A DNA stretch of 62,495 nt, counting the filler, from Jimgerdemannia flammicorona (Eukaryota): NCBI GenBank assembly GCA_003990765.1. It is 3 parts of 3 records of this genome, joined end to end, with 100 filler letters (N's around TTAATTAATTAA, not from the genome) between each part and the next. Parts side by side here need not be neighbours in the genome. Positions count along the whole stretch, not along the records: positions 20,872 to 41,638 come from RBNJ01001593.1; 2 more parts are not named here. One strand, written 5' to 3'. Positions 20,772-51,274 of the stretch are shown one piece after another; position 1 is the first letter of the stretch, and every line of letters starts with the position of its first letter. Position numbers and translations under genes: made by a program. A model generated the notes under the pieces. The model made no database searches and had not been told where the DNA came from. It saw only the letters and a program-made list of their open reading frames with translations.

Positions 20772-20871
20772 NNNNNNNNNNNNNNNNNNNNNNNNNNNNN
20801 NNNNNNNNNNNNNNNTTAATTAATTAANNNNNNNNNNNNNNNNNNNNNNNNNNNNNNNNNNNNNNNNNNNN
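20772..20871. other. Assembly gap spacer
   Basis: 44 N + TTAATTAATTAA + 44 N, an artificial six-frame-stop linker. Confidence 0.97.
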
Positions 20872-27516: not shown

Positions 27517-27546
27517 ATTGAAAAATGTTGCAATAGTGACCCCAGC

Positions 27547-29462
27547 CTAAAATTCCTTGCTCATCTCATCCCCAGCCAGATCCAAGCACTGTTCAGCTTC
27601 CAAGTCACCCTCTGCATTAGCCTGAGCATCCAGTGCCTCCAAGATTTCCTGACATTCTACCCCATCCACTACCTCCATATCCGATCTGTAGTCCAAGCAG
27701 ACTACACACCACTTCTCCAGTCCCTTCCTCCTGTTCCACAGGAAAAGCGCTCTGTCACTCGCAATCTTCCTAAGTTCCTCTTCCTGCTAATCATCAACCT
27801 GCTATTCAACTGACTCCAGGAGGACAGCCAGGATCTCATTCCTCATCTTCCTTGGCACCTCCTCTCCCCAAAGGATCTCCTCCCAATGCCTCTCTTCCAT
27901 CACCCTGAAATCCTCACCCCCCAGCTCCTCAGCCGCAACCCCTTCCAGGGTCTTCCACATCCACTTCTCCTCATCCACTGCCTCCGCCGCACACTGAGTG
28001 ATTTGTCCCCCATCCACCTCGGGGTCCACCAGCATGCTCCTCCTCATGGACTCATCCCACTCCTCATCTGGTACATCCAGCAGCTCCTCCTCCCCCTCAG
28101 CCCCACCTGCAACACTATACTGAGGGTGCGCACCCTCACCCATTTTGGTATCCACCTCCAAATCGCCTACCCTTTCCTCACCCACTCCAATCAGAGCCTT
28201 GCCCTGGGCCATTTCTCCCCCCTCAGCCCAGGTGCTCTCCTGCAACCCTGCCACTCCCTCTCCTGAGCTACCACCAGCCCAACCCCCACCCAACTTTACC
28301 AGCAGCTCCTTCTGGATTCTCCTCCCCTGCATCTTCTCCCAGGCCCCCTTCTCCATCCGAACCCTCTTTTCATCCATCTCCCCCACCACTGTCCTGGCCT
28401 CAAACTCTTTCCAGGCCAATCTCCTCCTCGCAACAGCCCCTTCCAGATCCTCCAGAGCCTCCAACAGGTCCTCCTCCTCCTCCTGGGTCCCCTTCACCCT
28501 CATGACCTTACACTCCACCAGTCCCCACCTCAGCATCGCCGGCCAGTCCCTTGACTTCCCCATATTCTCCTTCCTGGCCAGCCTCACCCTGACATCGACG
28601 TCACCAGTCTGAAGCTCCGTGCCCTCCCAGACCTTGAACCCAACATCTACAATCTCTCCATACTCCTTGATCACCTCCACAACCAACTCCCTGGTCCTCT
28701 CCTTTGACATGGTAGGGAGATCCAACACCATCAGCTACACCACTCTGGGGTTCCAACACATGCACCAGGCCATAGGGACCACAACCCCGCCCACCATCAC
28801 CCCCTTCTCCATGGCTGCCAACAAGGTGTCTTCCTTCTCAAACCCCACCTCAACCCCTTCCTTTCCCCTCAGAAACTTCACTGACACCGCTCCCTTAGCC
28901 TCTTGTACCACCAGCCCCAAAATAATCCTTGCTGTCACCACTAAGCCCTGGAAGCACATCATGACCACTATTCTGACCTCGATTTCTTGAGTAATGGGGC
29001 TGACACCATGCCTGTCACCCCATCTGCCAGGTCCCTGGGCCTCGTGCCCACTCCTATTCCGGAATTGCCAACTACTGTCATATCTGGATTTTTTGCCAGA
29101 TCCCCAGTCACAGCCCCATCAATAGTCACATCTCCAGCCCCTACTCCCACTCCTTCCCTACCACCAGAAGCTCCCCTGGGCACACCTCCCTGTCCCCCAG
29201 CAGCAGCCATCGAAGCCTTCCCCAGTCCCAGCCAGCCATCCAGCCCAGGAGCCATCCTCCCCATTCTGACCTTGTCAGCGAAGGTCGACCTCTCCCCTCC
29301 TCTCTGCCTCAGACTGCCCCTTCCTCTACTACCAGGGCCTCAGCTAGCCATTGAGGCCCCTGGCATCCCCAAACCATCTTCCCTCCTCCCCACCTGCTGC
29401 CAGCCAAAGGCGCTGTCACCCTGCTGGCCAGTATGCTCACCAGTTCCATTGTTGCCATCCAT
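27547..29462 (-). pseudogene. LINE B ORF1 (RRM-like region plus acidic helical C-terminus)
   Basis: Starts MDGNNGTGEH; contains VEVGFEKED, VLDLP and EYGEIVDV. One frameshift near 28970 and a few stops. Confidence 0.85.
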
Positions 29463-29746: not shown

Positions 29747-32700
29747 TACGACCTTTCACCAGTAACATTCAGGTGACACAAGATTTGGACAACACTTTCT
29801 GTGAAGTTTTTGGTGAAAAGCTACTATCAACAAAGCAAGCAACGAGCATACTGGTGGGCATGTCGGCCAGGGGGGCAGCCATGCCTTCGACTGGCAGCAG
29901 GTCGGGAGGAAACGAGGAGATGGTTTGGGGATGCCAGGGCCATCAGTGGTTGGCGGTGGCACTGGAGGTGGAGGAAGAGGTGGACTGAGGCAGCGAGGTG
30001 GGGGGAGGACAACCTTTGCTAACAAGGTCAGGATGGGGAAGATGGCAGCAGGGCTGGATGGTTGGTTGGGACTGGGGAAGGTGATGCTGGTTTCAGATAG
30101 AGGACAGTGAGGACCCCACATGGGAGCATCAGTCGGTATAGGGGGAGGGGGAGCAGGGGTTGGAGATATGACTGCTGATGGGGCTGTGACGGGGAATCTG
30201 GAAAAAAATCCAGATGTGACAGGGGTTGGTGGATCAGGACAGAAGGAGGGCATGAGCCCCGGGAACCTGACTGATGGAGTGATGGGTATAGTGTCAGCAC
30301 CATTACTCAAAAAGTCGAGGTCAGAATTTGCTATCATGTTGTGTTTCTGAGGCTTAGTGGTGACTGCAAGGATGATTCTGGGGCTGGTGGTGTAGGAGGT
30401 GAAGGGGGCAGCCACGGTCAAGTTCCTGAAGGGGAAGGAAGAGATTGAGGTTGGGTTTGAAGAAGAGGTGTCGATGCTGGAGGCTGTGGAGAAAGGGGTA
30501 GTAGTGGGCCGAGTGGTAGTCTCTATGGCAAGGTGCATGCGCTGGGACCCACGAGTAGTGCAGTTGATGGTGCTGGATCTTCCTACAATATCATGGGAGA
30601 GGGTCAGGGAGTTGATTGTGGAGGTGGTCAAGGAGTATAGGGATATCATCGATATCGGGTTCAAAGTCTGGGAGGGTACGGAACTTAGGACTGGAGATGT
30701 TGACATAAGGGTATGCTTGTTTGGTCGAGAGAACACAGGGAAGGCGAGGGACTGGCCGATGACACTTAAGTGGGGTCCAGTTGAGTGCAGGGTCTCCCAG
30801 GTGAAAGGGACGCTGGAGAGGAGGATTTGCTAGAGGCTCTTGAGGATCTGACAGGAGCTGTCGAGAGGAGACGATTGGCTTGGAAGGAGTACGAGGCCAA
30901 GACAGTGGTGGAAATTGTGGAAGGGAAGAGGATCAGGATAGACTGAGGAACCTGGGAGAAGATGCAGGGGAGGCGAATTCAGAAGGAGCTGCTGGAGAAA
31001 TTGGGAGGAGGCATGGTGGGAAGTGGAGAGGGAGGAGGTAGAGTAGGATCGAGGGAAAGTGACTGGGCTGGGGAGCCCAGAGCAGTTCAAAGGGTGGCCC
31101 AAGAGGTCCGTGGTGAGGGAAGGCAGGACAGCACGGTGGAGGATGCTGAAATGAGTGTAGAAGTACAGCCACAGTATGGGGTCCCTGGAGGAGCCAGAGG
31201 TGAGGAGGAACTTCTTGATATCCTGGAGGAGGAGTGAGATGAGTCAGGGAGGAGGATCGCATTGGTGGACCCGGTGGTTGAGGTGGAAGGGAGCACCCAG
31301 GGTGTCAAGGTGGAGGTGGAGGAGGAGAAGTGGTTGTGGAAGACTCTGGAGGGGGTGGCAGCTGAGGAGCTGGGAGGTGAGGACTTCCGGGTTATGAGTG
31401 ATAGGCACTGGGAGGAAATTCTGCAAGGTGAGGAGGTGCCAAAGAGGGTCCGGAATGAAATTCTGGCAGTGCTCCTGGAGTTGGTGGAGTATCAAGTCGA
31501 TGATCAGAGGGAGGAGGAACTTCGAGTGATTGCGAATGATCGAGCAGCTTACTTGTGGAACTCGAAGAAAGGGTTGGAGAAGTGGGGAGTAGTGTGCAAG
31601 GAGTATCAGACAGAATTAGAAGTGGTTGATGGGCAGAGTGCCAGGAAATCTTGGAGGCACTGAATGCGCAGGAGGTGATGGAGGATGAGTTGGAGGCTGC
31701 GTGGCACCTGGATCTAGAGGGGGACAGGAGGAGCATGGAATTCTAGATTGCGATATCTCTACCAAACATTATTCAATATGAACAGTACAACTAGAATCTT
31801 TTCTTTGAATGTCAATAGACTAAGGGGGGTGTCACGGCATAGAAATATCTTTAGCTGGTTGAAGGGTCTAGAGGCAGATCTCTTCCTATTGCAGGATGTA
31901 TGGTATGAGTCAGATGTGGACCTACTGGACTGGACTTGAGAATGGTGTGGGGCAGCAATATGGACTGGGCAGGTGGGAATCCTGGTTAGAAAAGGGATGG
32001 GGGACATTGGGGACAATGGACATTGGGGGAGTAGGCTGGTATGGAGAGTGTGGAGGAGGCCTGGTTGGAACGCTTTGACTGTTGGGTTGTGTTATTGCCC
32101 AGCTGAGAGAGGGGAATGCATAGATTGGATCAGAGACTTGTGAGAGGCAGGGATCTTGGGGGAAGCTGGGATAGATTGCCTGGGGGGTGACTTTAACATG
32201 GTGTGTAATAATGAGGTGGATAGGACTGATGGGGGGAGAGGACTACGAGGTAAAAGTGGAGGGCTGGAGGATTGGATAGAGGTGGAGAGGTTGTGTTCAT
32301 TGGTGGACTTGGGGTGACAGTTCTGGGTAGATCGCCAAATCTATACTCACTGGGTGGCAGGACTAGGATCCAGGATCGACTGGGTGCTAACAGTGGCATG
32401 CTGGGGAGTGGATGTCTGGACTATACTGGAGGTGGTTTGGTGCCCATGGTCTGATCACTGGGGACTAATAGGGAGTGGGAGATTTGAGGGAAGTGGGGAT
32501 GGGCCAGGACACTGGTGGCTCAACTTGTCTTTATTGGAGGATGGTTCTCTATGGACCGATTGGGAGATGGAGGCTACCAGGAAGATTATTAGATGGTGGG
32601 AGCAGGGATGGTTATTGGAGATCGATGGCAGAGGCTGAAGTCAAGTGCTCAGCAGTTCTGGAGGGAAGCAGGGAAAGGAAAGAGTGCACAAAGGTGGAGG

Positions 32701-35520
32701 CATGTACAATGGGCTTCACATAGATTGGTGGCACTTTTGGAGAAATGGGCAGGGTGGATAGAGGGTGAAGGAGTAGCAGATTGGCGAATTCTTTGGATAA
32801 AGAAGGAAATTGAAGAGCTGAAGGAGGTGCTGCAGAGGGAGGAAGAGAATCAGATAGATGGAATGGTGGCAAGACTGTGGTGGCAGGGGTTGGAGGAAGG
32901 GGAGCAACCTACTAAATTTCTCTCCCGGCTGCTCCAAGCATGGAGGACCAGGCAGTGGTGGGATAGTATCTTGGATGAGGATGGGGAGATAGTGGTGGGT
33001 TTGCCAGAAATACTGGGATTGCTGCGTAATCACTGGGGATGTTTATGGAGCAAGGAGGATGGAGGTGAGGATGCACTGAACATTGAACGGCAGTTGGAGG
33101 ACTGGCATCCGGACCCAGCTCTGGGACTGGGGACACTGGGAGAACTAGTATGAGGAGAGGAGGTGTGTAAAGTCCTGGCCGTGACAAGTAAAGGGACTGC
33201 ACTGGGAGAGGATGGACTTCCCTGGGATTTTTGGAAGAGGATGGTCAAGGTGGAAGGGGTCTTGGAGGAGGTGACTGCAATGTGTGATGAAGTTATTTGA
33301 TCTGGTGTCTGGATTGGGGGTCAGCGCCTAGGACTGGTCTCCCTGCTCTTTAAGGATAAGGGGAGGAGAGAGGATTGGAAGAATTGGCAACCAATCATGC
33401 TTCTTGACATAGACCGCAAGTTGGTGACAAAGATCTTGGTGAATAGACTATAGGGGATCGCTCAGCATATACTGAGAGTGGAGCAGCAAGGATTTGTTGG
33501 GGGTCGGTCGATCCAAGATAGGACTGCATGGGTCCATGGGGTGATTGAAGGAGCTCAGGCAGCTGGGGTTGATGGCCGGTTGGTTTTTCTGGACAAGGAG
33601 AAGGCATATGACAGAGTGAGGAGGGTCTGGCTGGAAGGTATACTGAGGTATATAGGAATCCTGGTGGATTTTCGGAGGTCATTAATCAGCCTATTGGAGA
33701 ACAGTCAAGCAGCTTTGGTAGTGAATGGACACAGGGGAATGAACTTCCCACTAGGTTGCGGAGTGCCACAAGGGGATCCTCTGTTACCTATCCTATATGC
33801 CCTGTTCTTGGAGCCCCTTCTGGACAGGATCCGGTGCCATATTGGGGGTTTGGACATTTTGGGGATTAACTGGAAGGTTGGAGCCTTCGCAGATGACATA
33901 GTGGTCAGTCTGGGTTCATTTGCTGATGTGGAGGAATTGTGTAGGACTGTGGAGTGGTATGAGAGGGGCTCGGGTGCACGACTCAACTGGCACAAATGTG
34001 AAACTATAGTACTAGGAAGGGAAATAGTTGGTGGGGAAGTAATTGGAACAGTAGTCCCTGCTGGAGAACTGGTCCAGTACTTGGGGATATATTTCTTGGT
34101 ATATGGGTCTGTCCTGCCTCATGCATGGTGGGAACAGCGGCTCCTGGTGTAGGGGAACATTCTCTTGAGGTGGGGTGGCCGGCATATATCCTTGGTGGGA
34201 AGGGTGATAGTGCTGAACATATATTGGCTGCCAAAGCTGTGGTATATGGGGTATTATCTGGATTTCCCTGCCTGGGTGGTCAAGCGGCTTCTGAAAATGG
34301 CAAGTTCATGGATCTGGGCAGGATGGTGGAGCCAAATTGGCTGGGAGGTTCTGTCGCTACCTGTTGACAGGGGTGGGCTGGGCTTGGTGGACTTGGACAA
34401 GCATCTACATTGCCTGAAAGCTTGGTGGCTGAAGAGGGCTAGTGAGTTGCATGGAAGGGAATGGGTGCCACTTATGCAGAGAGTGTGGGAAGTTCAGTAC
34501 TCCCCTCATGGCACGACTGGTGATCTGTTGGCACTGGTGGCTTTGGATGGTAGTTGAAAGATGTGCTATAAGGGGTTTTGGTGGGGAGTGGTGGACAGTG
34601 CAAGGCGAATAGGACTTTGATGGAGGGGCGATGAGGGGGAGGAAGAATGGGGACCACGGATGTGGAGATGGGACCGGTTGCTGCTGGGTGGTACTTTGGT
34701 AGAGGATTATCAGCTTGGCGATGGTATGGAATGTCTGATGGGTCTTGGGGGTGACATATGGCCTGAGTCTTGGCAGCGAGCTGGGATTGGAGAGGAGTGG
34801 GATTGGAATGGGGTCTGGCTTTGGAGCAAGCAGATGTCGCAGTGGCTTCCCCCCAAGTTCTGGGTGATATGGTGGAGGTTCTTGAGGCGGAATGTGATAC
34901 TGAACTATTGGTCAGGGCACTTAGTGCCTGATGGTATGTTTGAGTGTGAGGAATGCTTGAATGTTGGTCAGGAGGGGGGAGTGGTGCAGATGCCTGAACA
35001 TTGGCTTGGGGAGTGTGAAGTAATGGGGGACTTTGGGGACATTATTGCTAGTAGGTTGAGACTATAGCCTCTGTTGGAGGGGGAGGGGGGGAGATGGGGG
35101 AACCTTCGGCAGAGGTTAGTAGGTGGGGTTGGGGATGAATGGTTGACCCTGGGTTGGGCCCTGACAATCTGGGTAGAGATGGCTGGTCATTGGCTACGTG
35201 TCTTTGAGGAGGGCCAGGTGACTACCATTGTGGCGAGGGTGGCGTGCTGGAAATGGTTAACACTAGACACTTTGAATGGTTGGTGGCGAGGGTGGGGAGA
35301 GGGAGGGGGGAGCTGCCAGAAACTGGTGGAATGTATCTGCAAGAAGAGTGAGGAGAGAGTTCAGGTGGTGAGTGGATGGATTGTCCTTTGGTAGGGCGAG
35401 GGAGTGGGTGGGGAGGGGGATCCAAGGGGCATCAGTTAAAATGGATGAAGGCATTTATGTATTATCTATAGAATGTGCATAATAAAGAGAAGTCCGAGTG
35501 ACTGAGAAAAAAAAAAAAAA
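29747..35520 (+). mobile_element. Full-length L1/Tx1-like LINE (C)
   Basis: Perfect TSD gagatcgccatgcaga (29731-29746 and 35521-35536), AATAAA at 35481 and poly(A) at 35507-35520. ORF1 spans ~29832-31746. Confidence 0.96.
31778..35439 (+). pseudogene. LINE C ORF2 (endonuclease-RT-zf)
   Basis: MNSTTRIFSLNVN..., RIDWVL, SDH, GVPQGDPL, AFADD, CEEC...PEHWLGEC; multiple nonsense codons. Confidence 0.93.
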
Positions 35521-36553: not shown

Positions 36554-36871
36554 ATATAGTTATGAAGGTAGTTCAAACTTCAGCAAAGTGGTCAGAGCTA
36601 CTTAACATTCATATGGATTAGCTGCTTAACCCTCATGCAGAATAGCTGCTTAATATTCATGTATTCATGTAGAATAAGCTGCTAAAACAATTATGTGGAA
36701 CATTTATACATTCCCCTATGCTAGTTTCAATTGGTTCCTTATGCTAAAAGCAACCTAGTTAGTACTAATTTCAGATAGATGCCATATAGTTCTTTTATAC
36801 AGTGACTGAGTATTTATCACATCTCAGCTCTCGCCACTTTTAGCAACTAAGCATATACTATGCCAGTAATC
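36554..36871 (+). repeat. Direct repeat A1 (A2 at 41156-41473)
   Basis: Near-identical copies that differ mostly by transitions, with internal ~24-bp gctRcttaaYattcatg tandem units. Confidence 0.9.
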
Positions 36872-36921
36872 GTTAGCAATCTCACAGTTCAATTTGTGCA
36901 TTTTTTCTTTTCCAATACACA

Positions 36922-38240
36922 ATGCCCACCATTTGCACCCAGTCTCAAGAGTTATTACCCCAACCAGTTCCCACTCCTATTCATCCGCACATTCCTACCC
37001 TTACTGGACTGTGCACCTTATGCAAAGAGGACTTAGTCACACTCTGTCAAGACTATGACTTATCAGTTGTTGGTCAAAAGATGTACTGGTTGCATGATTG
37101 GACACAAATCATCCTTGGCCAGAACCTGACCTTCCACTAGAGCTTGACATTCATGCTGATGATGCTCTCATTCAATGGCTATTGCCTGCCCTTATCATCC
37201 ATCTTGCTGGTCATCCTCCTCCTCCAGCACTGACCTTGATAGGTCCTGAACAGGCCTTTCTGCCACTATTACCAATATTGCTGATGGGCTTTCCATAGGC
37301 AGTATCTCTTCCAGCAATGGTTCCTCCTCGCCCATTAGTGCCATCCTTTCAGATAGGATCAATAGCACCACTGCCACACACTTTGCCAATTGGTGAGTCA
37401 TTCTCTTCCTTTGTTTCTGATGCCATGCTATGACACAACTGGGTCTCTCCCGATTTGCTGGTATCACTCAAAACAGGTGATTATCAAATTCTAGCCAAGT
37501 GGACTGGCAATGCTCTTATTTTGTACTCAAGCAGGAAAAAGGAATCCATCCTCCCAACTGTGACCTCGATCTCCCACTCTGGCTTGAAGTCAGCTACAAC
37601 ATTCATGGAGCCTTATTAGCACTAAGCACTACTTTGTCAGTAGCTCATACATTATATGTATCTCAAATTCTTACCCATGCCATCTTCATTATCAAAGCCA
37701 TCAATGATAATTATGAATGGACTGCTCTTCAGCACTTCAACTGCCAAGTTCATATGTTAAAAGCAGTATTTTCAGAGCTCGACATAGGCAACCCAGAAGT
37801 GGTTTGGTGCATGTTTGAGACAGTCATTGACCAACTATTATCAGTGCCATTAGCTTATCAACCTGCTTGGTGTGTCTCTCTCCAGCACACAACTTCTCTA
37901 TCTACCAGCGGTTCATCAACATCTCATGCCATTGGTGGCTCTTTCATCCCTTATTCAACGGAAAGCTCAAAACCCTCCCCTGCTCATAATTTTCTATACT
38001 TTCGATGTGGGGTATGAGGGCATGGCACTAGCTCTTGCACCCAAACTCTGCTCCCATGACCTATATTCACTCAAAAACCTGATGACCCTCTCTATTCTGA
38101 TAGTGCTGCTTGTTCAGTCTGCCATCAATTCAACGGCACCTCTGGTTGCTCCAGCAATTGTGGTCGAGTGTATGTTTGTCTTTTCTGCTATAGATCTTAT
38201 ACTGCCTTGGCATGCTCTGCTTACTGCAGCTAATTTGACA
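36922..38240 (+). pseudogene. YR-element ORF1/gag with SAP-like N-terminus and Cys/His fingers
   Basis: LCTLCKEDLVTLCQDYDLSVVGQKDVLVA*L; YFRCGV*GHGTSSC (decayed CCHC); VCHQFNGTSGCSSNCGRVYVCLFC. Confidence 0.7.
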
Positions 38241-38269
38241 ATCCCTCCAACATCTGGTCACCCTACCAT

Positions 38270-39850
38270 TCTATACCAACTCGTAGAATGAAAACAGGCC
38301 CTTTGCTCACATCCCAACCAATCACTCATTCAATATCACTTAACTAGTCTCTATCATGGCTATCTTTATGGCAATCATTCGCATCTTGAGCTTTATATTG
38401 ATTTGATATCTGATAACCTCACATTGGCCTACTGTTATCAAGACGTCCTCTCCACTAACATTTATACTAAATTGATGGCTGGCCACTATCTTGGCCTGTT
38501 CACATCCCTTTCCTCACTGCCTCTTGAATTTCGCCCCTTCTGCAATGCACCCTTGGGTGCTATCCCCAAGAAACATTCCACCAAATTTCAAACAATATAG
38601 CATCTCTCTTTTTCTATTAGTGTATCTATTAATGATGAGATAGATCCTAATGAGTTCTCGATTCAGTACCAGTCGATTTAAGCCATTATCCTTCTGCTGA
38701 TTTCCTTGGGTCCCTCTGCACTTTTCTGGAAAGCTGATGTTGCCAAGGCATTCTGCACTATCCCTGTCCATCATTCTAATTGGGCCATGCAGGACATCTG
38801 TTGGCTTGGTCTTTCTTTCTTGATATGTTCCTTCTATTTGGCCTCTGCTTGGCTCTCTTCATCTTTACCTCTCTTATAGATCTCTTTATGTGGATCTGCA
38901 TTCAGTTGTACCACCTTCCTAATTTGGGACATTTTGTTAATGATTTCATCTTTATGGCATTACTGTCCAGTGCATATTCTGTATATACTCAGTTTAACAC
39001 CATCATGTCTCAATTTGATATTCCACTCCAATCCTCCAAAGATATTCCACCTACTCCCACTATCGAATATATGGGTTTTCTTCTCGATGCTCCTAGGATA
39101 ACAATTAGTCTTCCTGCTGAAAAGTGTACCTGCATACTGGCATTACTGGCTGAGTGACTCTTACCCTTCAGACAGACTCATCCTCATCATCTATGCCTTT
39201 ATTCCCATCATGACACCCAATCTCTCTCAGGCCATCTTATGTATGTTGTCCAGATTCTCTCTGATGGGAAAGTATTCTGTGACTGCATCATTTGCTTTGC
39301 TGCTTCTTGAAAACCACCCTATGCTGGATGGCATTTTCCACCTCCTCAACTTACTACTGATTTATAGTGGTAGCAAGATATCCTTCACTCATAGACAGAT
39401 CATCACCTGCTTTTCCATTCTGACTGGCTCAATTGCAGTCTATTCACAGATGCCTCAGGTACTCTTGGCACTGGTGGCCTATTAGGGCATCACTAGTGGA
39501 GTGTTTGTTAGGCCCCCTCCTTCATAGCTCAGGGTGGTTATGACATATTCTGGAAGGAAATATTTGTCATTTGGGTTCATTGGTGCTTTGGGGCTCTTCA
39601 TTTCATTTACATTGCATCATTCTCTGGTGTGACAGCCAACCCTGTGTTGATTCTTTGGCCAGTGGTCAGACTTGTCATCATTCTCTCATTAATGACCTTC
39701 TTCATCAGATTATTCTCTTATATCTTGACCTGGGTTTCGATATTTAGGCTCAATATATCCCTTCTATATCTAACTCTGCTGACCCATTATCTCATCTCAT
39801 CCTCCTACCCTATTCTCAGGATCCTCTTCCTATATTGGTCATATCACTCT
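38270..39850 (+). pseudogene. DIRS/Ngaro-type RT and RNase H
   Basis: APLGAIPKK, HLSF, SINDEI, WKADVAKAFCTIPV, LLFGL, HFVNDF (YLDDF), IEYMGF, FTDASG, WKE and WCDSQ. Confidence 0.88.
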
Positions 39851-40872
39851 TTGGCTTTGGATTTGACACCTGCCTCTATCAGCATACACACACCCAGATC
39901 AGGAATCTCCGAACTAGCATCAATTCTCTCCTTTACTTCCTCAGCTCCTACAATATTATAGAAGCTGCCACATTCCCTCTTCAAGATGACCTTCTGAGCT
40001 ATTGGGCACTATGGCTTGCTAGTGAAGAAAAACCCTATTCTACCATCAAGAACTATTTTTACAACCTTGTCACCTACTAAGTGGCTCATTGGCATGGCAC
40101 CTCTCTACACCATACATCCCTATCTCTATTTGACGCTATTCTCAAGTTCATCCAGACTCACCCTCTACCATTATCTGGTTCACTTGACCACTGCCCAATT
40201 ACTTGTCAACATCTGTAGTTAATCTATCTCTCTCTTTGCATTGATAACCCCTTTGGCGCTATGATATAGGCTGCAGCATATACTGTATTTTATGGCCTTA
40301 TGCATTTGGGTGAACTAACTACTCAGGATGGCTTTTCTTTTCAACCCTCCTGGCAAGTATGCTGACAACACTTTCAATGATAGTGGGATTCTGCCCTCTT
40401 CTGTCCCTTTTGGTCCTTACATTTACCTCATACAAAAATGGGGGTGGCTGGCGATATTTTTCTCAGCTTCTCTGGTGCCTTTGATTGTCCATGCACCACA
40501 ATCAATTATATGATGCGCATCCTTTCTGCTCAATTGCAGGACCCTGCTTTTTGTCTGGGTCCAGCTCAGCCTCTTCTTTGATCTATATTCATTGGGGTGA
40601 TTCAGTCTCTATTGGCTAGCACTTCATTGGTAGTTGGTATTTATGGCCATTTCTTTCGAATTGGCAGTGCTTCTTTATTGATGATGGTGGGCTATCTCAA
40701 TCATATTATTCAACTTGCCAGCTACTGGAAATTAACTACTTTTCTTCATTATATTTGACAACTCAATCATCTTTTACTGCCAACTGCTGCTACATTGGCT
40801 AGACTTCCTCTACCTGATTATCAGCAGGCTATGGGTTTGGCTAGTGGTGGTCAAATATTACCCACAAAGTGA
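39850..40872 (+). pseudogene. Tyrosine recombinase
   Basis: FYGLMHLGELT (decayed RxGE box), YGHFFRIGSAS (HSFRIG box) and QLASYWKLTTFLHYI (GRW.S...Y box). Confidence 0.88.
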
Positions 40873-40989
40873 GTTATGGCACCCTTAGGAGCCTAACTCA
40901 CTTCCCAGGCCTACAGTATTGACTCCTTTTGCTTTAATGTGAATGGCGGACCCTGGGGAAGGATATGCTTCCATATAAGCCAAACCCAT
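40831..40989 (+). ncRNA. Candidate structured cis-acting RNA at the YR 3' end
   Basis: A 12-bp closing stem, several internal stems and a possible loop-loop pairing, all found by eye (see findings). Confidence 0.5.
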
Positions 40990-41472
40990 CAACTTCAGTT
41001 ACAATTACATTTTTATGTACAATTACTTCTTTTACAGCATACAATTATTCCAGTTTATAGTATATAATTACTTCCAATTTTATGGTCTATGCCTATATTT
41101 TATATACATTTTTATGATTTACATTTGATTAGTCAATTATGCAAAAGATACTTTGATATAGTTATGAATATAGTTCAAACTTCAGCAAAGTGATCGGAGC
41201 TGCTTAACATTCATGCAGATTAGCCACTTAATACTCATGTAGAATAGCTACTTAATATTCATGCATTCATGCAGAATAAGCTGCTAAAACAATTATGTAA
41301 AACATTTATACATTCCCCTGTGCTAGTTTCAATTGGTTCCTTATGCCAAAAGCAACCTAGTTAGTGCCAATTTCAGATAGATGCCATATAGTTCTTTTAT
41401 ACAGTGACTGAGTATTTGTCATATCTCAGCTCTTGCCACTTTTAGCAACTAAGCATATACTATGCCAGTAAT

Positions 41473-41474
<2 letters not shown>

Positions 41475-41512
<38 letters not shown>

Positions 41513-42690
41513 GTCCCTTGGACTCCGTCTTTATTACCAGTCTATGAATAATTATACAATATCACCACCCATTAACCAATCCCCATCTGGGGGCCCCACC
41601 CTACCCCTTCACGTCTAAAGACCTTTCTTTTTTTTACANNNNNNNNNNNNNNNNNNNNNNNNNNNNNNNNNNNNNNNNNNNNTTAATTAATTAANNNNNN
41701 NNNNNNNNNNNNNNNNNNNNNNNNNNNNNNNNNNNNNNAAATAGCCAAAGCCCAACCTAAAGTGAGCCACTCCTTCCCTATCCCCCCTACCAATCTAACC
41801 CTCAGGTCCTCCCATCACCCCTGTACTCCATCACTCCTACCCCATACCTCTAAGTGATCCCCAATTGTCCGCCAAAAATCCCCCAACACCTCACACTCTC
41901 CTAGCCAATGTTCCGGCGTCTGTACATAACCCCCCTCCTGCCCTACATTATGGTACTCCTCACAGTCGAAGCAACCCCCTACAACCAGGTGCCCTGAGTG
42001 AAAATTGAGCATAACATTCCTCCGCAGCATGTGTCACCAGACCACCCAGTACTTTGGTGGCAGCCATGCTCTCACTGCAGCACTCCAGGTCCAAACACTA
42101 TGCCAGTTCTACTCTTCACCAATTCCAACTCCTTGCCAACTGCTAGGCCACAGATCCTGGCCTGGTCCCCTTTGGCATTTCATTCCATCACCAATGTCGA
42201 ACTCAGTTAAAGGAGCACCACCCAGCAGTATACAGTCCCATCTCCACATTGCCAGGTCCCAATTCTCCTCACCTTCATTCCCTTGCCAACGAATACCAAT
42301 GCGGTGCACTCTGTCTGCAATTCCCCACCAAAATCCTTTATATCATAGTTGGGCAGTATTCTGAAGCCCAACCAAGGAGAGGAGATCACCGGTTGAGCCC
42401 CTTGGCGATGTCCGCCTCTCCCATATCTTTTGTAACAGAGGAACCCATCTACCTCCACTCAGCTCCACCGCCCTCTTCAGCCACCATGCTCTCAAGCAGT
42501 GTAACTGTTTTGGGAAGTCAACCAGCCCAAGACTGCCTCTCGCCACTGGTAGGGACAAGGTTTCCCAACTAATCTGACTCCGCCTGCCAGCCCAAATCCA
42601 TCCTTTTGCTGCCTTCATCAATCTCTTCACTACTCAGGCTGGGAAGTCCAGATGATATGCCAGATATCACAACTTTGGCAGCCAGTAGAC
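41475..42690 (-). mobile_element. 5'-truncated LINE (E), spanning a gap
   Basis: Poly(T) at 41475-41509; ORF2 C-terminal fragments GSLGLVDF, RAWWLKRA and TPEHWLGEC. Continuity across the gap is assumed. Confidence 0.85.
41639..41738. other. Assembly gap spacer
   Basis: 44 N + TTAATTAATTAA + 44 N. Confidence 0.97.
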
Positions 42691-42694
42691 ATCA

Positions 42695-43076
42695 ATATAA
42701 TATTTCTCTACAATAAGTACCATTATACTATTCAAAACTTTGAAGAAAGCCATCATTGAATCTCAGCACTCTAAGATCAGACAGCTGCTCAGTTCTACTC
42801 CTTACCAATCTCTACTGTCTGCCAGCCCACTGGCTCTAAATCCTATTCTATCTCTCTTTAATACTCTACTCTAGTATTAATATCAAAGTCTACTAATAAC
42901 AAACTATCTAATAGTAATCTTTCCCATTACTATATTACTGAACTCTAATATATCTCCCCCTTAGTACTATATCAGTACAGTCCAATTCAGTATATACTCT
43001 CTATCACCCTCCACCAGAAGTCTCTATACTATAAGTACCTACTGTCACCCAGTTCAACTAATAACTATAGATCATC
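42695..43076 (-). mobile_element. Highly decayed LINE ORF2 C-terminal fragment
   Basis: Residual similarity to ~24400-24780 (e.g. ccaccagaag, cagtccaatt). Confidence 0.55.
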
Positions 43077-43107
<31 letters not shown>

Positions 43108-45182
43108 TAGTCACTTAGACTTTGCCATTTATTATCCATCTATTATATATAATTACAATATTCTCTCACACTACCCAATATCCCTAGAGAGCTCTCCCCT
43201 TATACTCTCATATTTAAAATCCATTTTATCACTCTCCACACCAACCTTCTCCTCACTCTGCCTATAGATTTTCTCTACCAAATGGTACTACCAATCTCTC
43301 TGCAGACCCCATCCCAGCCACCATCTCATCAAGACATCCTCCAGCAACCCTTTCCACCTCACTAACTGCTCCTCCAAACTCAAATGCTTTCTATTTTTAA
43401 ATACAAATAGCCAGTGATCTGTTAGTCCTACTCATACTGCTAATATTCAACCCAAAGTCAGCCACTCTCTCCCCACCTCCCTTACCAATCTATCTCTCAG
43501 ATCTTTCTATCACCCCCACTCACCATCTTCCCTATGATTATAAATTATCTAAAGAACCTCTAGAAAAAAAACCTTATCTCTTAAACCTATTATATCAGAC
43601 ATCTATATGTTACCAAACAGTTTAACTGTCTGCTTCAACTATTAAGCTCTTAGGCAATATATGTAACTTCTTAGAGAAGTCTACTAGCCTAAGATCCTCT
43701 TAGTTTATTAAAATTGTCAAAATATCTCAACCAATCTGATATCATCATCTAGCTCAAATCTATTTCTTAGCTAACTTCAATAATCTCTTCACTACTTAGA
43801 CTCGAAAGTTCAAATGATATATCAGATACTATAGCTTCAGTAATTAGTAAATATTCAGTATTGATATCCACCTAGTTAGTAAGATATAATACCTCCCTCA
43901 GTCCTAAAGAGATGCTTTCCAATCAGTCATTCTTTACTTCTATCAAACTCTGGGCAAGACAGATCTATATATAGATAAAAAGATGCCCAGATATCTCACC
44001 ACCTCCCCTGCAGAGACAATTGTTCCAATGATGTCCCCACCTATTAGCCCATTCTCCAGCACTATTGTCTCATACTTATGTCAGTTAAGCTTTACCCTAA
44101 AATACTTCTCATACTATTCTACTATCTCTCTCAGTACTCAAACATTAGTTACTGAGCTAAGGCCAATTATCATATTATCAGTGAAGGTCCCAACCTTCCA
44201 TACTATTTCAAAAATAAAAAGTTCAGCCACCTTGTAATGAATCCTATCCATCAATGGTTCTAGTGACAGAGTATATAGAATAGAGACAATTGGTCCCTCT
44301 GAGGAACTTCTCCCCAATGAAAAAGTAATACTATAATGACTATCACATAAAAGTAATACCTAGCTACCCTTTAGTAGACTAATTATTAAAATTCAGAACT
44401 ACTGAGAAATATCAATTCTATCTAGCACCTTCTCTAACTATATCTACTAGATACAATCATAGATCTTCTCCTGATTCAGGAAGACTAACCTCCCATTTAG
44501 CCCACTAGTTCTTACCCCCTCAATTATGCTGTGCACTCAAGCTATTCTATCTTAAATAAGTCAGCCTCCAATAAAGTTCTGCTGATTCTTACCTAGTATC
44601 TGTTGGGCCACCCTCTATAGCTGAACAATAATTACTTTTATAACCAGCTTCCTGTCTATGTCCAGAAATATAATTGATTACCAATTCTTCTAATCCTCTC
44701 ATCTACTCTTTTTTTTATACAGCAGAACTACCAGACCAAGATTCTGCTCTTCAATCTACTTCTCAGATATAAGAACAAAATCACAGAGTACCACTATCTC
44801 TTCAGGTACCTCCAGGATCTCTACTATTTTCTTTCAGAAGTCTCAGGGCAGACCATTCTCATCTAGTATTATATCTAATTTCATAGTAGCCAAGACTCTC
44901 AGAATCTCCTCCTCTTTGATCAGCAGAACTAAATCACTAAGACCATTCATCTATGGGGATTATGTATTAATCTTCTAGAGAGCACTCTATAGCCTCAGCA
45001 TCAGTATCTCCTTTCTTCTCACTCTATAGATCACTCTATCTTCTCTTTAGAGAGTCTAAAATTCACTGAGTACAATATACTAGCATACCCTCTGTATTCA
45101 ATATTCCATCTCACTGCTGTCTCACTCTTCTCATCTAAAGTAATTTTGACAAATACTTAGAAGACTGCTCACCTTTCTCAAG

Positions 45183-45187
<5 letters not shown>

Positions 45188-45233
<46 letters not shown>

Positions 45234-45239
45234 CTTTTT

Positions 45240-45280
<41 letters not shown>

Positions 45281-45363
45281 GTTACTCAGACTCCTTTATT
45301 ATTAAGCAATCTATATAGAAAATATATCATATACTACCCAACTCTGTTCACTATCCAATCTAT
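45188..45363 (-). mobile_element. Extremely 5'-truncated LINE insertion (G): ~85 bp of 3' UTR plus ~90 nt poly(A)
   Basis: TSD cttYctcaagcctct (45173-45187 and 45364-45378). Confidence 0.8.
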
Positions 45364-48326
45364 CTTCCTCAAGCCTCTGTTATTTTAACTGAGCTACTAT
45401 CTCTCTCATATAAATATCCTCTCCCCTCAATACTCTCTATAACTCTACTATGTATCTCCAACTTGACTCACACTAATCTCCAATCTTCTAACATTTCCTG
45501 GCCCAACAGATCAGCCCATTTTACCTATAACTAGACTAACTAGTCAGAAGCCCACCTCACTCTCCTATACTACTCCTTTCCAGTAAACTAATCAGTCTTC
45601 CTCTAATATACTCTAGTAGCTTCCTTCATTCTCACTCAATAGACCTCTATTAGGAGCTCCTCATGGTTCTAATGTACAATCTGCAATCCAATATCCCTAA
45701 CTCAAGTATTCCACAATCTCTTCTCAGTCAGCAAGGAGAAATTGAGATACCAATATTCAGGTCTATCCTCATTTCTCCCAAACTGACTATGTCCTATTAA
45801 TCTCTAATAGTCTGACTATAAGTATCACTCAATCTCCAGATCTTTCCAAACATTCAACCCCCAGCAAACAGCCATTAGCATTTAGTCAATTCTTATTCCA
45901 AGTTCATTTATCCAATAAGTATAGACCTAATAGTCACCCCACAATACTCTGTCAGTATTTACTAAAGAACTGAGCCTTTCTACTTTCTTCCAAAGATCCA
46001 GACCCCCACTGTGATCTCCAGCACTTCTCTTTCAATCTGTTCTATCTAATACTATATCTCTGACTATATTGAAATCTCTCCCAAATACATCAATCTCTAT
46101 CTCAGCCAGTATATTATATTTAAGGAGTCTATCCAACTATATAATTTGATTACCTCATATTACTGGACAGTAATATAAGTTAATAATAATAGTCTCTTAC
46201 TCTGATCTTTACTACTTCCTCCAGACCAATCTGCTACCCCAATCTCCAATATTACAAATTTTATCTTTGCTATACTATATTAGAATTTTAATCTTATTTC
46301 TTCAAATACTATATTACTCTACTCTCTTATTCACTTCTGCTTATCTAAGTCCTCTTCTCACTATATTCTGTAATAAAAAAAGATCTATATCCAGTCTCTT
46401 TAGCAAAGTAAAAATATTCTAATATCTCTCTGAGTTTCTCAGACTATTCATATTCAACAAAAAAATGTTAGTTGTACTATTTATAGAAAAAAATAGTATA
46501 AAAGTCCCAGTTCCTTCAAAGCTCTACACTTATCTCCTTCTAAGCTAAGTTTAGTTTATATTCTGTAATAGTCTCCTCATTCTCAACCCTGTTAGCCTTC
46601 AGTCTAACTAGAAGCTTAGCTAACTTCTTCTCATTCTTCTTCTCTATATTTTCCTTACATACCAGATATACCTCCTATCAAAGCATTAATCTATCTTACT
46701 TCTACTACTAGTAGATAGCCCATTCTCTAGCAGTTATGGTCAATTCTGCCTCTCTTGCAACATCTACTTTATAACCTTTCTCTTCTAGATATACTATCAG
46801 TATCTCAGACTTCAGAGCCTCTATTATACTATCTTCTTATAGAATTCTTTCTCAGTACTTCTTGCTGGTCACTCTCAAGTTTATCTCACCCAACTCCTCT
46901 GCTACTAGATTGTACATCATTGTATATATCTATTGTAAATTACCAATATTCTTCTACTCAGAAGTATTAGGCCACTCCTCACAACATTATAGTATTAGCT
47001 CCAGTACTTGCAGACTTATCCCATATCTCCTCTAGAATATTAACTAACTTATCTATCTTAATACTAATTACTTAACTCTCTTTTATAACATCAGGCACCC
47101 TAAACTGAACTCTGTGATTGCTCTTTATCTCAACATATTTGCCAGTTCTCTGCTTAGAGGTAGCAGTCCTCATTTCATCTATCTTCTCCTCCTCTTATAC
47201 TTTAAGTATACTATTATCATAAAGCTACTGATCTCTCACTTCTTTACTCACTCTCACACTCTCTATTTATCTCTCCATATTACCAGTAGTCCAGGCACTC
47301 TCTAGCACTTCTTTTGAGCTCTCCTCTGATCCAATCACTAGTACTGTCTTTATCTCAACCAATAAGTCTCTCTGTCTCTTTCTCTTCTAAGTCTTCTCTC
47401 ACAGTATCTTATTTATCTGAATATACTTCCCATCTACTATCTCTAAGTAGATTGAAGCTATATCTTTCTCTATATCTCTACTCAATACTTTACTGCTCCA
47501 CTTAAGTTCTTTAGTATCTCTAGCAGATTCTCCTCCTCCTTCTTACTCTCCTTCACTCTTATTATCTTACAAATAAAAGTACCCTACATAATTACTGATA
47601 GCCAGTTCTGAGCCTTCTCAGTAGCCTCCCAGCTAACCTGAGTCTGATATCAACATCTCTAGTCTGGAAAGAGATCTTCTTCCAGATCTGGAATCTAATA
47701 TCTACAATATCACTATACTCTACTATCACCTCTGCTATTCTTTACCTTATCTCTATAGCTATCACTATAGACACTCCTTTTACCAGAAGCTGAACTATTC
47801 TGGAGTCTTATCTCAAACAGTATGTCATTGATACTACTATCTTCTCAATTGATAATCTAGTCTTCAATATCTCCTCTAGTGGCCTTACCTACTCAAAGCC
47901 TACCTCAACTCTCTCCAGCTCCTATAAGAATTTTACTAAAGCTACTCTAGCTACATATCTACTTCAAGATCAGCCCCAGAACTATCTTTATAGTCTCTAG
48001 AAGTACAATGTGACAGTAAACTCTAAGATTAACTTCTTGAGTAATGGTACTACTACCAGTCTCATTATATTATCTATCAGGTTCATTTATTTTTCTTGAC
48101 CCACCTGCTCAGCCCTGCTATCAGCCATTACATCTGGATTTTTTTCTAGATTTTTAGTTATACTACTATTAGTAGTTACTCCTTCATCTCTAGTCATAGT
48201 CTCTTCAGTCTCTATACTCACTCTCTCAGACAGAGGACCTCTCACTCTTCTCTAACCTAGTCTATCCCTACCATTAGCCCTACTAGCTCTAATACTCTCT
48301 GATCAGCCTCTCCTCTTTACCTTATT

Positions 48327-48920
48327 TTTTTTTTATTTTTTTATTTTTTTATTTTTTATTTTTTTATTTTTTATAGTCACTTGGACTCCTTTCTTTATTA
48401 ACACATTGTCTATCCTCTATATAATACACTATGCCCACCCCTATCTGATCCCCCTAGAGAGACTCTCTCCTCTCTCTATCTCCTCTTAATGAAAGACTAC
48501 TTTGTCATTCACCATCACTACCTGCCCACCACTCTGTTCACAGATCCCTTTTACCAGATGGCTATATTGCCTACCTTGGGGACCCCAACCAACCCACTAT
48601 CTGATCAACAGATCTTCCATCAACCCCTCCTATCTCAGCAACTTCTTCTGTATACCCATCTACTGCCTCTCCTCAAAAACAAAGAGCTAATGTCCAGCTA
48701 GCCCTACTTATATAGCTAAAACCCACCCTACAGTGAGCCATCCATTGCCCACCCCACCCACTAACTGAGATTCCAAATTTTTTCAGTGACCTCTCTCTCC
48801 ATCCAGCCTCCTCTCTACACCCAAATGGGCCCCTACTACTATCTAAAAGTCCCTCAGAACCTCATACTCTCTCAGCCAATGTTCTGGCATCTGTATAAAT
48901 CTCCCAACTTACCCTATATT
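48327..48920 (-). mobile_element. 5'-truncated LINE insertion (H)
   Basis: (T7A)n tail, ORF2 C-terminal remnants and TSD tcctctttaYcttatt (48311-48326 and 48921-48936). Confidence 0.82.
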
Positions 48921-49205
48921 TCCTCTTTATCTTATTAGTGAAGCTTATAGACCTCTACTTACCTTCTCTTCCACCAGACACCAGCTATCCTCCAGACTCT
49001 CCCTGACTATTTACTCTACTAAAAGAGCTCATTCTCAGACCATAATCTCTCTCAACATACTGCTACTCAAAGGCCCCAGATCTGTCTAATCCAGTATACC
49101 CATCTGAACTCTTGTTAGTTGACATATTATTATTATCTTATTTCTAAAAACTGTATTAAAAGTATTGTTAGAAGTTTATATAACATAATTAGTACTAGAG
49201 AAAGA

Positions 49206-50750
49206 TAAGAAATCTGTATTATCTACTATTTAAGAAATCTATATTATCTACTATTTAAGAAGTTTATTGAAAATCTGTATCATTTAAGAATTTTGCTAAA
49301 TCTATACTATCAGTGAAAGTTACTTCTATCTGAAAATTGCTATTATATATTTACTATTTGAGATATATATTTATCAAATCTGTCATATTATATAAAATCT
49401 ATATTTAAGAATCTATACTATTTGAGAAGTCTGCCAAATCTATATTATTTAAGAAGTTTACTAAATCTGTACTATTTAAGAAAAAAAGCATATAATAGTT
49501 ATTATATATAAATATACTAAATCTGTCTTATTATACTGAACTATACTTAATTAGAAAATTACCAAAATTATCTATATTATATGAAAAGAACTTATATTTA
49601 TTTTTAAATAAATATTTTAGCTACTGAAAATTCTAATAGAAATTTTAACAGAAATTCTAACTAGCAGTTATAGATACTCTATATAGTATAACTATATATA
49701 AATATACCTAGTATATCTAATTTAGTCATAGTCTCAAATATATATAAATAATGCTCTCTATACTGAGTAAGTTATAACTTTAGTCTGAAAGCTGAAGAAA
49801 AGCTTAAAGCTCTGCTTTCTTTAAGTACAAAAATAAAGCAGTATTCTTATTACAAAACTCTCAGATCCAACTTATTAATAATTCTGAGCCTGGTTAACTT
49901 AGAATATAAATATAGTATCTCTACTATTAGTATAAGAACCTGAAAGTGATATTTAAACTATAGGTAATTAAAACTTAGTACTTTCTTATAAGTACTCAGA
50001 ACTTAGGATTGATAGTCATCTTAATTATCTATAACATATTAATTCTATTAGTATATAGTTTTATTATAAACTTGATCTTATTAAAATATATATATGTATA
50101 TATATATATTATTAACTCTAGAAGTTAAGAAAAAATATAGAAATCTACCATACTTTCTAGATTATATATCTACTATATTATATTATAGATTTATTAGTAT
50201 ATTTTTTATAATTAAAATAAACAATTCTTCTTTTACTAATAATAGCTAGTATAAATTTTTAAATTTTATAATAATTTTCTTTTTAGATATTTTTTTAACT
50301 TCTAAATAGACTATAATTTTAGTAAATCTTTAAATAAGTTTTACTATTAAGTTATTGTTTTTTATTATTATTCAATAGACTATTATTATTTTTATTAAAT
50401 ATTTTTATTAATAATAATTATATAATCTTATTTATCTTATCAGATCTCAACTTATTATTAATATAAATAGTTTTTTTATTTTATTTTTAAATAACATAAA
50501 AATATTTATTTATTTATTTATATTATTATTAAATATAATATTTATATTTAAATTATAATATGTTTATATAATAATAATAATATATATATCATAGATTATA
50601 ATATATATATTGTTATTATTATATAAATATATTATATTTTAATCGATATTAAAATAATCTTATAGTTTTTAGAATATATAGTTTATTTATATTTAGATAA
50701 TTGATTATAATGTTATTATTTAAAGTTAAATTAATCATTAATTTCTTTTT
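49206..50750. repeat. Extremely AT-rich decayed repeat relic
   Basis: aaatct...ctatttaaga tandem units at 49210-49480 grade into almost pure A/T, TpA-rich sequence. Confidence 0.6.
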
Positions 50751-50762
50751 ATCTCTTACTAT

Positions 50763-51274
50763 TAGTGCTCCGAATGGATTGATTCGAAGTGGCTTATAGG
50801 TGGTACAATTTGAAGAGAATTCAACGTGTCAATATCATTGTTTTGATTTCCAAATTAGATAATTAAATGTTTATATCAATAACTTGATGAAAAATCATCC
50901 AATTTTGATGATTATGGTGTCATTCAAAAGCCCTTAAAGAGAGCTTTCTAATGATACCAAGAACATTGAAATCAGATGACACATTGCCAAGTTATCAATA
51001 TTTTCAAAAATCAGTAAGTCAGATATTTTCCTTGATAACTCAGGAATGTGTCATCCAATTTCAATGTTCTTGATATCATTAGAAAGGCCTTATTAAGAGC
51101 TTTCAAATAACACCATGATCATCAAAATTGAATGATTTTTTTTATCAAGTTATTGATGTAAACATTTAATTGTCTAATTTGGAAATCAAAACAATGATAT
51201 TGACATGTTGAATTCTCTTCAAATTGTACCACCTATAAACCACTTCGAATTGATCTGGATCGGCTCATTCGGTG
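50763..51274. mobile_element. Foldback MITE / non-autonomous DNA transposon (MULE-like TSD length)
   Basis: ~230-bp inverted arms (~50769-50998 and ~51032-51272) flanked by the direct repeat tctcttactat (50752-50762 and 51275-51285). Confidence 0.8.

Follow-up and report, generated by a model that had tools for sequence, protein, structure and literature searches.

The window analysed here is a stretch of 62,495 nucleotides (nt), filler included, from Jimgerdemannia flammicorona (assembly GCA_003990765.1), in which positions 20872-41638 come from contig RBNJ01001593.1. This contig carries a dead, transition-rich, 5.2-kb element with remnants of a gag-like open reading frame (ORF), a reverse transcriptase (RT) and a tyrosine recombinase (YR) between 321-nt direct repeats. 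Judged from its sequence, the element is of the Ngaro type, a split-direct-repeat YR retrotransposon in the order DIRS. At the end of its YR remnant lies a strongly folded stretch (40831-40989), which is the subject of this report. Its fold recurs in related elements, where it is conserved and covaries, and where it keeps its position relative to the YR stop codon and to a repeat named B. The folded stretch may well be what decay has left of a structured 3' domain that follows the YR stop codon directly in Ngaro-type retrotransposons and would act in cis in their replication.

Relatives were sought by scanning metagenome contigs with a query made from the aligned closest YR proteins. This gave 534 stretches, 337 of which were confirmed, and the best 80 are referred to as loci (L001 onwards). 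The gag-like, RT and YR remnants of the window are collinear with the ORFs of the intact-looking locus L003. The element and its right flank comprise the following features:

36554..36874, plus strand: left direct repeat A1, 321 nt, 91.9% identical to 41156-41476
37341..37720, plus strand: remnant of the gag-like first ORF (tblastn of L003 ORF 2933-3880, E 2.5e-15)
38211..39364, plus strand: RT remnant with frameshifts and stops (tblastn of L003 ORF 4262-5422, E 6.5e-95, 45-54% identity)
39748..40869, plus strand: YR ORF remnant in a single frame with about 10 in-frame stops, ending at the TGA at 40867-69 within the structure
40990..41155, plus strand: AT-rich remainder before A2, presumed to be the rest of B1 from the repeat layout of L003
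41156..41476, plus strand: right direct repeat A2, 91.9% identical to A1, with its start at about 41151-41156
41477..41638, minus strand: 3' end of an element resembling a long interspersed nuclear element (LINE-like), seen on the plus strand as a poly(T) run and then a tail common to four other sites

The YR remnant (39748-40866) matched the 306-aa protein P0001 with an E value of 4.3e-100 and 55% identity at 79% coverage, and the L003 YR matched 40327-40815 with an E value of 6e-45 (tblastn). The tail of the remnant could be aligned with the relatives P0003, P0007 and P0010, and the H-x-x-R and Y motifs were identified by eye. The Phage_integrase match of P0001 reached only 16.1 bits, under the cut-off of 27.1. 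The L003 RT ORF matched Pfam RVT_1 with 30 bits (cut-off 29.6, E 5.2e-7), and its RT_RNaseH match was weak (16.5 bits, under the Pfam cut-off). The L003 gag-like ORF matched no Pfam family, nor did the window element's own frames, translated with X at stops. The lack of a methyltransferase domain is a trait that separates Ngaro from DIRS and PAT elements. No Pfam family for such a domain was found on the window frames, where the absence is weak evidence in so decayed a copy, and L003 gave only RVT_1 and RT_RNaseH.

The two A repeats of the window element differ at 26 positions, and 24 of these differences are transitions. In L003 the repeats were mapped at 2595-2868 (A1), 6978-7105 (B1), 7103-7376 (A2) and 7419-7546 (B2). 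According to the available text of two papers (PMC3783388, PMC8547959), this order of A1, internal region (int), B1, A2 and B2 is the published Ngaro arrangement. The B2 repeat of the window element is not visible because A2 is followed directly by the LINE-like tail, which adjoins it at the place expected for B2, and then by the contig end, where the linker begins at 41639. A sequence-only reading that preceded this analysis had placed the structure in a YR retrotransposon, and the homology of the gag-like, RT and YR remnants together with the direct repeats bears this out.

The YR frame, read with X at stops, does not end at the TGA at 40756 but continues as far as the one at 40867-69, and the last YR codons therefore overlap the 5' part of the structure. 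Its parts are as follows:

40831..40842, plus strand: 5' strand of the closing stem P1, in unique sequence, overlapping the last YR codons
40844..40865, plus strand: small hairpin after the P1 5' strand (RNAfold); a hairpin is also there in L004, L008 and L003, its sequence not conserved
40867..40903, plus strand: central hairpin of 15 bp with one bulge (arms 40867-83 and 40888-903), the variable arm of the domain
40921..40951, plus strand: hairpin P5 with a conserved GAAUGG on its 3' strand; the inner 7 bp are in the minimum free energy (MFE) structure, the outer pairs come from the L008 register
40957..40972, plus strand: hairpin P6, GGAAG/CUUCC (arms 40957-61 and 40968-72), adjoining the P1 3' strand
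40978..40989, plus strand: 3' strand of P1, which in the relatives falls within the B repeat

RNAfold gave this stretch an MFE of -61.7 kcal/mol on the plus strand (z -4.73), and none of 200 dinucleotide shuffles was as stable. On the minus strand the MFE was -61.4 kcal/mol (z -4.20), with 1 of 200 shuffles as stable. Among 516 sliding windows of 159 nt on the plus strand of the contig (20872-41638), the stretch ranked first in stability, and the runner-up reached -55.7. The 12-nt arms of P1 are 100% complementary, and they form one of only three inverted pairs of at least 11 nt in the 5.2-kb element. The window fold also contains a stem CCAGG/CCUGG at 40905-09/40952-56. Most of the stems listed by the sequence-only reading, including the 12-bp closing stem, were thus present in the sequence, and the fold was better than the shuffled controls against which that reading had wished it to be measured. 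It had also described the structure as overlapping the YR stop and lying just before the right repeat, and both statements agree with the mapped TGA and A2 start. Other details gave way. A hairpin had been proposed between TTTGCT (40928-33) and GGCGGA (40945-50), but the fold and the relatives use another register, in which the inner P5 hairpin pairs 40925-32 with 40939-46 and extends in the relatives over 40921-51. The 'de-mutated' form of that hairpin, TCCGCC/GGCGGA, had no counterpart in three relatives. The proposed non-nested (pseudoknot) pairing of 40850-59 with 40915-23 likewise had none at the aligned positions of L003, L008 and L004, as read from the alignment.

No other copy of the structure was found within the window. 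Among the seven closest loci, L003, L008 and L004 (48-62% YR identity) carry a domain directly after the YR gene with the same layout. In it, a P1 of 11-16 bp encloses variable inner hairpins, a P5 whose 3' strand has GAAUGG, and a P6 (GGAAG...CUUCC) adjoining the P1 3' strand. Each of the three folded alone into P1, inner hairpins, P5 and P6. The 5 bp of P6 were invariant in the window, L004, L008 and both L003 copies, and at the position of the central hairpin L003, L008 and L004 have shorter hairpins of different sequence. In a transition-tolerant alignment, the window domain scored z values of 4.5, 6.4 and 5.6 against L004, L008 and L003, respectively, above all 300 shuffles and above all 63 other segments of the same element. 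A model built from L003 and L008 (R1) found L004 over its full length (20.5 bits, E 0.0017) and a half-copy in L003 B2 (40 bits). A pattern scan for the P5-P6 core gave eight further matches on genome contigs and one on a viral contig. Under R1 these nine scored at most 12 bits, with five matching in the P6 hairpin only, one (L085) giving a whole-model match of 9.7 bits and three giving no match, and they were taken as chance matches and rejected as relatives.

The P1 helices of the window, L003, L008 and L004 were registered on their GGU(U/G)UGG core. Offsets 0-8 were paired in all four, save one A.C in L003. Changes on both sides occurred at offsets -3, -2, -1, 3, 7, 8 and 9, and offset 7 appeared as C-G, G-C and U-A. 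Between L003 and L008, three further pairs of the consensus fold had changed on both sides, one each in the central hairpin, in P5 (G-C to A-U) and in an outer pair. An ungapped register table for P5 was unusable owing to bulges.

A domain of about 105-115 nt was present in more distant loci with 26-36% YR identity to P0001, the first 28 of which were recognised by motif and fold. P1 in this group reads GGUUGGG.../...CCCAACC (GGUUUGGG/CCCAAACC in L074 and L076). P2 is a long hairpin with a 5' arm ...GCCGC, a loop ending in UGGGURAG and a 3' arm GCGGC..., and it is followed by the hairpin P3 (YGAGCUAACGCUCRG) and then by the P1 3' strand. A covariance model of the group (R2) found the domain in 36 of the 80 loci at E values up to 0.011, with weaker matches to B2 half-copies. 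The covariation statistics, taken over 30 rows and 24 pairs, showed 92.6% of cells with standard pairs versus 87.7 ± 0.6 in shuffles, and 44 cells changed on both sides versus an expected 17.4 ± 4.7. None of 500 shuffles was as high in either measure. When the partner was slid by 1-3 columns as a control, only 31-43% of cells were paired. The variation was located in the P1 extension, in P2a and in the outer pairs of P3. Covariation in related YR elements, for which the sequence-only reading had proposed a check, was seen both in the compensatory P1 changes among the four close copies and in the double changes of the R2 group.

The YR stop codon preceded the 5' core of P1 in 29 of 34 elements, by 2-56 nt in 28 of them and by 361 nt in one, so the domain is essentially non-coding and conserved at the nucleotide level. 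The stop lay inside the domain in the other five. The B repeat started within the domain in all eight mapped elements, comprising seven R2-group loci, in which B1 begins in the P2 3' arm at (G)AGCGGC, and L003, in which it begins at the first base of P5. Because B starts inside the domain, the P1 5' strand is unique, while the P1 3' strand and the last hairpin or hairpins are present twice, in B1 and in B2. The P1 5' strand of L003 has the same complementarity to B1 as to B2. In a third sequence group (L041, L049 and L061), the longest complementary pair across the same boundary was UUUGUGGGA/UCCCACAAA. When the longest perfect helix across the B1 start was compared with random positions, low counts were obtained in only four of 11 loci (2/289 in L003, 5/281 in L034, 9/278 in L041 and 10/284 in L010), and the rest were uninformative. 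RNAduplex of the 200 nt upstream against B1 left no shuffle as good only in L003, with 4/200 in L049, 8/200 in L041 and at least 19/200 in the other eight.

The start of the B repeat inside the domain fits a role in replication. The domain is a multi-hairpin fold closed by the long helix P1, with the 5' strand of P1 in unique sequence and its 3' strand, together with the last one or two hairpins, inside B. A complete element accordingly has a single 5' half for two interchangeable 3' halves, in B1 and in the 3'-terminal B2. We envisage a cis-acting structure within the single-stranded genome of the element, for which sense RNA is the likeliest form, that would tie the unique region to the B repeat. 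It could bring the 3'-terminal B2 into line with the internal site, either as a primer/template duplex or as a strand-transfer bridge, and the RT would start or switch at the aligned site. As a tentative and rather unlikely extension, the domain might be the priming and strand-transfer device of split-direct-repeat YR elements. The P1 3' strand of B2 would then fold back and pair with the unique P1 5' strand, which would serve as a primer-binding site (PBS) built into the element beside the YR stop codon, and reverse transcription would begin or switch at this site. If true, this would explain both why no transfer RNA (tRNA) primer site is needed and why the A-int-B-A-B layout is retained. How reverse transcription is primed and how the repeats are rebuilt in DIRS, PAT and Ngaro elements has been an open question since DIRS-1 was described. 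A covarying domain after the stop codon, with a closing helix that joins unique sequence to B, is a concrete and testable object for this question. It also offers a nucleotide-level marker for annotating the 3' ends of Ngaro elements in fungal genomes, among which those of Pucciniomycotina and Agaricomycotina are described as rich in such elements (PMC3783388). The window copy itself is dead, and the finding matters for the family-wide domain that was reached from it.

The proposed role could resemble, by analogy, that of the internal complementary region (ICR) of DIRS-1 or of the self-primer/PBS duplex of Tf1. No primer is known for DIRS-type elements, as stated in the available part of a 2020 study of DIRS-1 (PMC7192593). 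The same text describes the Dictyostelium ICR as required for transposition and the copying as passing through single-stranded complementary DNA (cDNA). The ICR acts in cis, as is proposed for the domain described here, and like that domain it lies just after the coding region of a YR element and is complementary to a terminal repeat, with which it base-pairs (PMC7192593). In DIRS-1 the terminal repeats are inverted and it is their outer ends that the ICR pairs with, whereas the Ngaro domain belongs to an element with direct repeats (A-int-B-A-B), and its predicted pairing is one helix that runs from unique sequence to the interior of B and closes a multi-hairpin domain. An ICR of the DIRS-1 type is complementary to the ends of both terminal repeats; in the Ngaro domain complementarity was found only to the B interior. 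That study also cites a proposal by Poulter and Goodwin that a 3' hairpin of the DIRS-1 mRNA is a possible self-primer (PMC7192593). This hairpin is, like our domain, a 3'-terminal structure of a YR retrotransposon with a proposed role in priming RT. It differs in being a single short hairpin of one element, for which the text seen reports no comparative support.

Tf1-type long terminal repeat (LTR) elements of fungi self-prime through an intramolecular duplex, according to the available text of PMC4600332. The self-primer/PBS duplex of Tf1 and Tj1 in fission yeast resembles P1 in being a perfect intramolecular duplex of about 11 bp in fungi, in elements without a tRNA primer site (PMC4600332, same text). 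The Tf1 primer is the 5' end of the mRNA and its PBS adjoins the 5' LTR, whereas both strands of the Ngaro helix lie in the 3' region. The Tf1 self-primer duplex, too, sits inside a larger RNA fold. The structured 3' untranslated region (UTR) of R2, the hepatitis delta virus (HDV)-like ribozyme of R2 and the hammerheads of Penelope-like elements are further structured RNAs at retroelement ends that the element machinery uses. The Ngaro domain differs from them in having no Rfam match, and in belonging to another element class with a different integration enzyme. A description of the domain was not found in the literature on Ngaro stem-loops, Ngaro ribozymes and DrNgaro1 at the level of titles and listings, a coverage outside which the founding papers (Goodwin and Poulter 2004; Poulter and Goodwin 2005) fall, and these may mention terminal hairpins.

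Several results weigh against the replication reading or against the membership of the window copy in the family. With filters off, R1 gave at best 4.8 bits (E 0.63) on the window, and only as a partial match. Neither nhmmer from L003, L008 and L004 on the window nor blastn of 40760-41150 against the 80 loci produced a match at the region, the latter yielding nothing significant. The homology of the window copy rests on position, layout and the transition-tolerant alignment. Its perfect P1 is no evidence of selection after insertion, as an estimate from the 8% divergence of the repeats gives about one expected hit in 24 bases. Among the seven closest loci, L001, L002 and L006 are without such a domain and L005 has only a weak analogue. 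R2 gave no match at E values up to 1 in the window, in L001-L006 and L008, or in the nine control loci of the pattern scan. We treat the window copy and L003, L004 and L008 as a probable sister group of the R2 group, with the layout in common and not the sequence. Because R2 misses all four, we can only infer one ancestral structure for both sequence groups. The P1 core and most of P2c are invariant in the R2 group and are thus uninformative either way. When cognate and chimeric halves were compared by raw energies, the cognate combination was the best in none of 31 cases; after double-centring, the cognate residual was -2.23 versus +0.15 kcal/mol (Mann-Whitney p 2e-5, 31 versus 840), a modest effect. 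In 22 of 28 domains the minus strand had the lower single-sequence z value (mean -3.98 versus -2.90). Finally, no complete copying scheme that regenerates A-int-B-A-B was derived from the P1 pairing.

The strand result bears on the first of the alternatives, that the same fold acts in minus-strand single-stranded cDNA. There it could, for example, join cDNA ends or repeats ahead of second-strand synthesis or the formation of circles, a role that has been proposed for the DIRS-1 ICR. Folding on the minus strand is no weaker than on the plus strand, judging by the z value of the window copy, by the majority of the 28 domains and by the consensus energies of the two strands, which match (-54.8 and -54.7). 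DIRS-1, moreover, amplifies via linear single-stranded cDNA, according to the part of PMC7192593 available. Against this alternative, the wobble pairs of the consensus helices favour the sense strand, with G.U 55 versus A.C 16, or 22 versus 9 without helix P2a, a weak argument, since the choice of helices was made on the sense strand and the cells depend on one another. We regard a cDNA structure as unlikely and prefer the sense RNA as the strand that would fold.

The position and conservation of the domain would also suit an RNA element that acts after transcription and has no part in copying, such as a signal for export, for stability, for shielding from nonsense-mediated decay or for translation termination after the last stop in a long 3' UTR. 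Export and stability elements are known near the 3' end of retroviral RNAs. The domain is conserved and covaries, and in 28 of 34 elements the distance from the YR stop to its start is 2-56 nt, as would suit such a signal. It leaves unexplained, however, why B starts inside the domain in every mapped element and why the 3' half is duplicated at the element end. The stop codon inside the domain in five of the 34, and 361 nt before it in one, also fits such a signal poorly. This explanation seems quite unlikely to us.

That both strands fold is expected of palindromic DNA as well, and the inverted repeats might be a DNA site bound by the YR or by another protein, for example in recombination or resolution. 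The element does encode a YR, and the short palindromes P6 and P3 each have a conserved centre, GCUAGC and GCUAAC, respectively. The core sites of YRs, however, have spacers of 6-8 bp, and the arms of P1 are 115-135 bp apart. Pairs also flip between Watson-Crick types among close relatives (C-G 14 versus U-A 11 at one P3 position), which fits pairing and not base-specific recognition. From the arm distance and the flips, a DNA recombination site is improbable. The presumed crossover point at the junction of B and A is moreover about 60 nt (L003) to 160 nt (window) downstream.

The sequence-only reading had suggested a ribozyme or a cis-element. The second part of this suggestion gained from the recurrence of the structure at the same place in relatives and from its compensatory changes, and the first part found no Rfam match. 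A self-cleaving ribozyme of a kind not yet described, setting one RNA end of the element, would agree with the compact multi-helix junction and with the conserved unpaired motifs UGGGURAG (P2 loop), GCUAAC (P3 loop) and, in the window's group, GAAUGG; ribozymes are used by other classes of retroelements. The Rfam comparison that the sequence-only reading had recommended, however, left every family well short of its gathering score, on the window as on L003, L004, L005 and L008. On window positions 38000-43000 there were eight matches at E values up to 10, none of them overlapping 40831-40989, and on the four loci the best overlapping matches were htlv_FSE (17.7 bits versus 45) and MAT2A_D (14 versus 32). 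Only B1, furthermore, offers the complete fold, and as B1 lies in the middle of the presumed genomic RNA, cleavage at this place would sever the template. The literature, at the level of titles and listings, gave no link between Ngaro elements and ribozymes. A ribozyme is therefore very improbable. A chance palindrome or a small foldback insertion, such as a miniature inverted-repeat transposable element (MITE), specific to the window copy is barely credible. The 12-bp terminal inverted repeats around 135 nt and the single copy in the window do resemble a miniature element, but there is no flanking target duplication, the fold is the extreme of 516 windows, and the recurrence of the domain at the same post-YR place in elements with 48-62% YR identity rules out a copy-specific insertion.

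Some further observations concern the repeats of these elements. The last 11 nt of the A repeat before B2 form a conserved C-rich motif, CCCGCCCWCCC, in L010, L013, L017, L021, L034, L053 and L058 (CCCACCCGCCC in L053). The bases before B1 read UGGGURAG, and their apparent complementarity to the C-rich motif was no better than in composition-matched shuffles. A pairing of the B1 boundary (GGGUGAGCGG) with the C-rich end of A2 was rejected, being no better than shuffles save in L034 (13/300) and absent in the window's group. A reading of the bases before B1 as a purine tract, like a polypurine tract, was also discarded because by eye it was not general across the groups. The end of the B repeat is conserved as ...GYTGGA (GGTGGAC in L003), both at the B1|A2 junction and at the right end of the element, in L003, L010, L013, L021, L034, L053, L058 and L041, and it may be part of the recombinase crossover site. 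In the window element, a 16-nt pair with 94% complementarity connects YR coding sequence (40577-40592) with the start of A2 (41164-41179). The corresponding pair in L003, of 23-24 nt and 74-75% complementarity, joins the A start to another internal site, so the position is not conserved. Identical repeats of 74-135 nt stand at both ends of contigs of about 4.9-5.3 kb in L009, L022, L029 and L037, which suggests either that the assembly wrapped around on the A repeat or that the element has circular or tandem forms.

The surroundings of the element in the window are rich in repeats. Linkers of the form N(44)-TTAATTAATTAA-N(44) at 20772-20871 and 41639-41738 resemble the six-frame-stop linkers placed between joined contigs, and the sequence on either side of them need not be contiguous in the genome because they join contigs. 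Two LINE-like elements lie in opposite orientation at 24122-29000 (minus strand) and 30000-35400 (plus strand). They match RVT_1, with Exo_endo_phos under the Pfam cut-off, and both have a very strong strand skew (GC skew of about -0.5 and about +0.5). Poly(T) runs followed by a common ATAGTCMCTYRGACTC tail were seen at 41475-41580, 43072-43180, 45176-45340, 48321-48403 and 23756-23867; tails similar to 41477-41638 start at 23756, 43077, 45243 and 48338. The ATAGTCMCTYRGACTC tails are the 3' ends of a poly(A)-tailed minus-strand element that was inserted repeatedly, and one of them adjoins A2. A very AT-rich segment (49001-51000, GC 0.16-0.24) separates this repeat-rich part from a gene-like part. 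The latter contains F-box and NAD(P)H-binding ORFs at 52-55 kb. At 57934-61617 on the plus strand, in GC-rich DNA (about 62-65% GC), lies an open frame of 1227 codons that matches no Pfam family.

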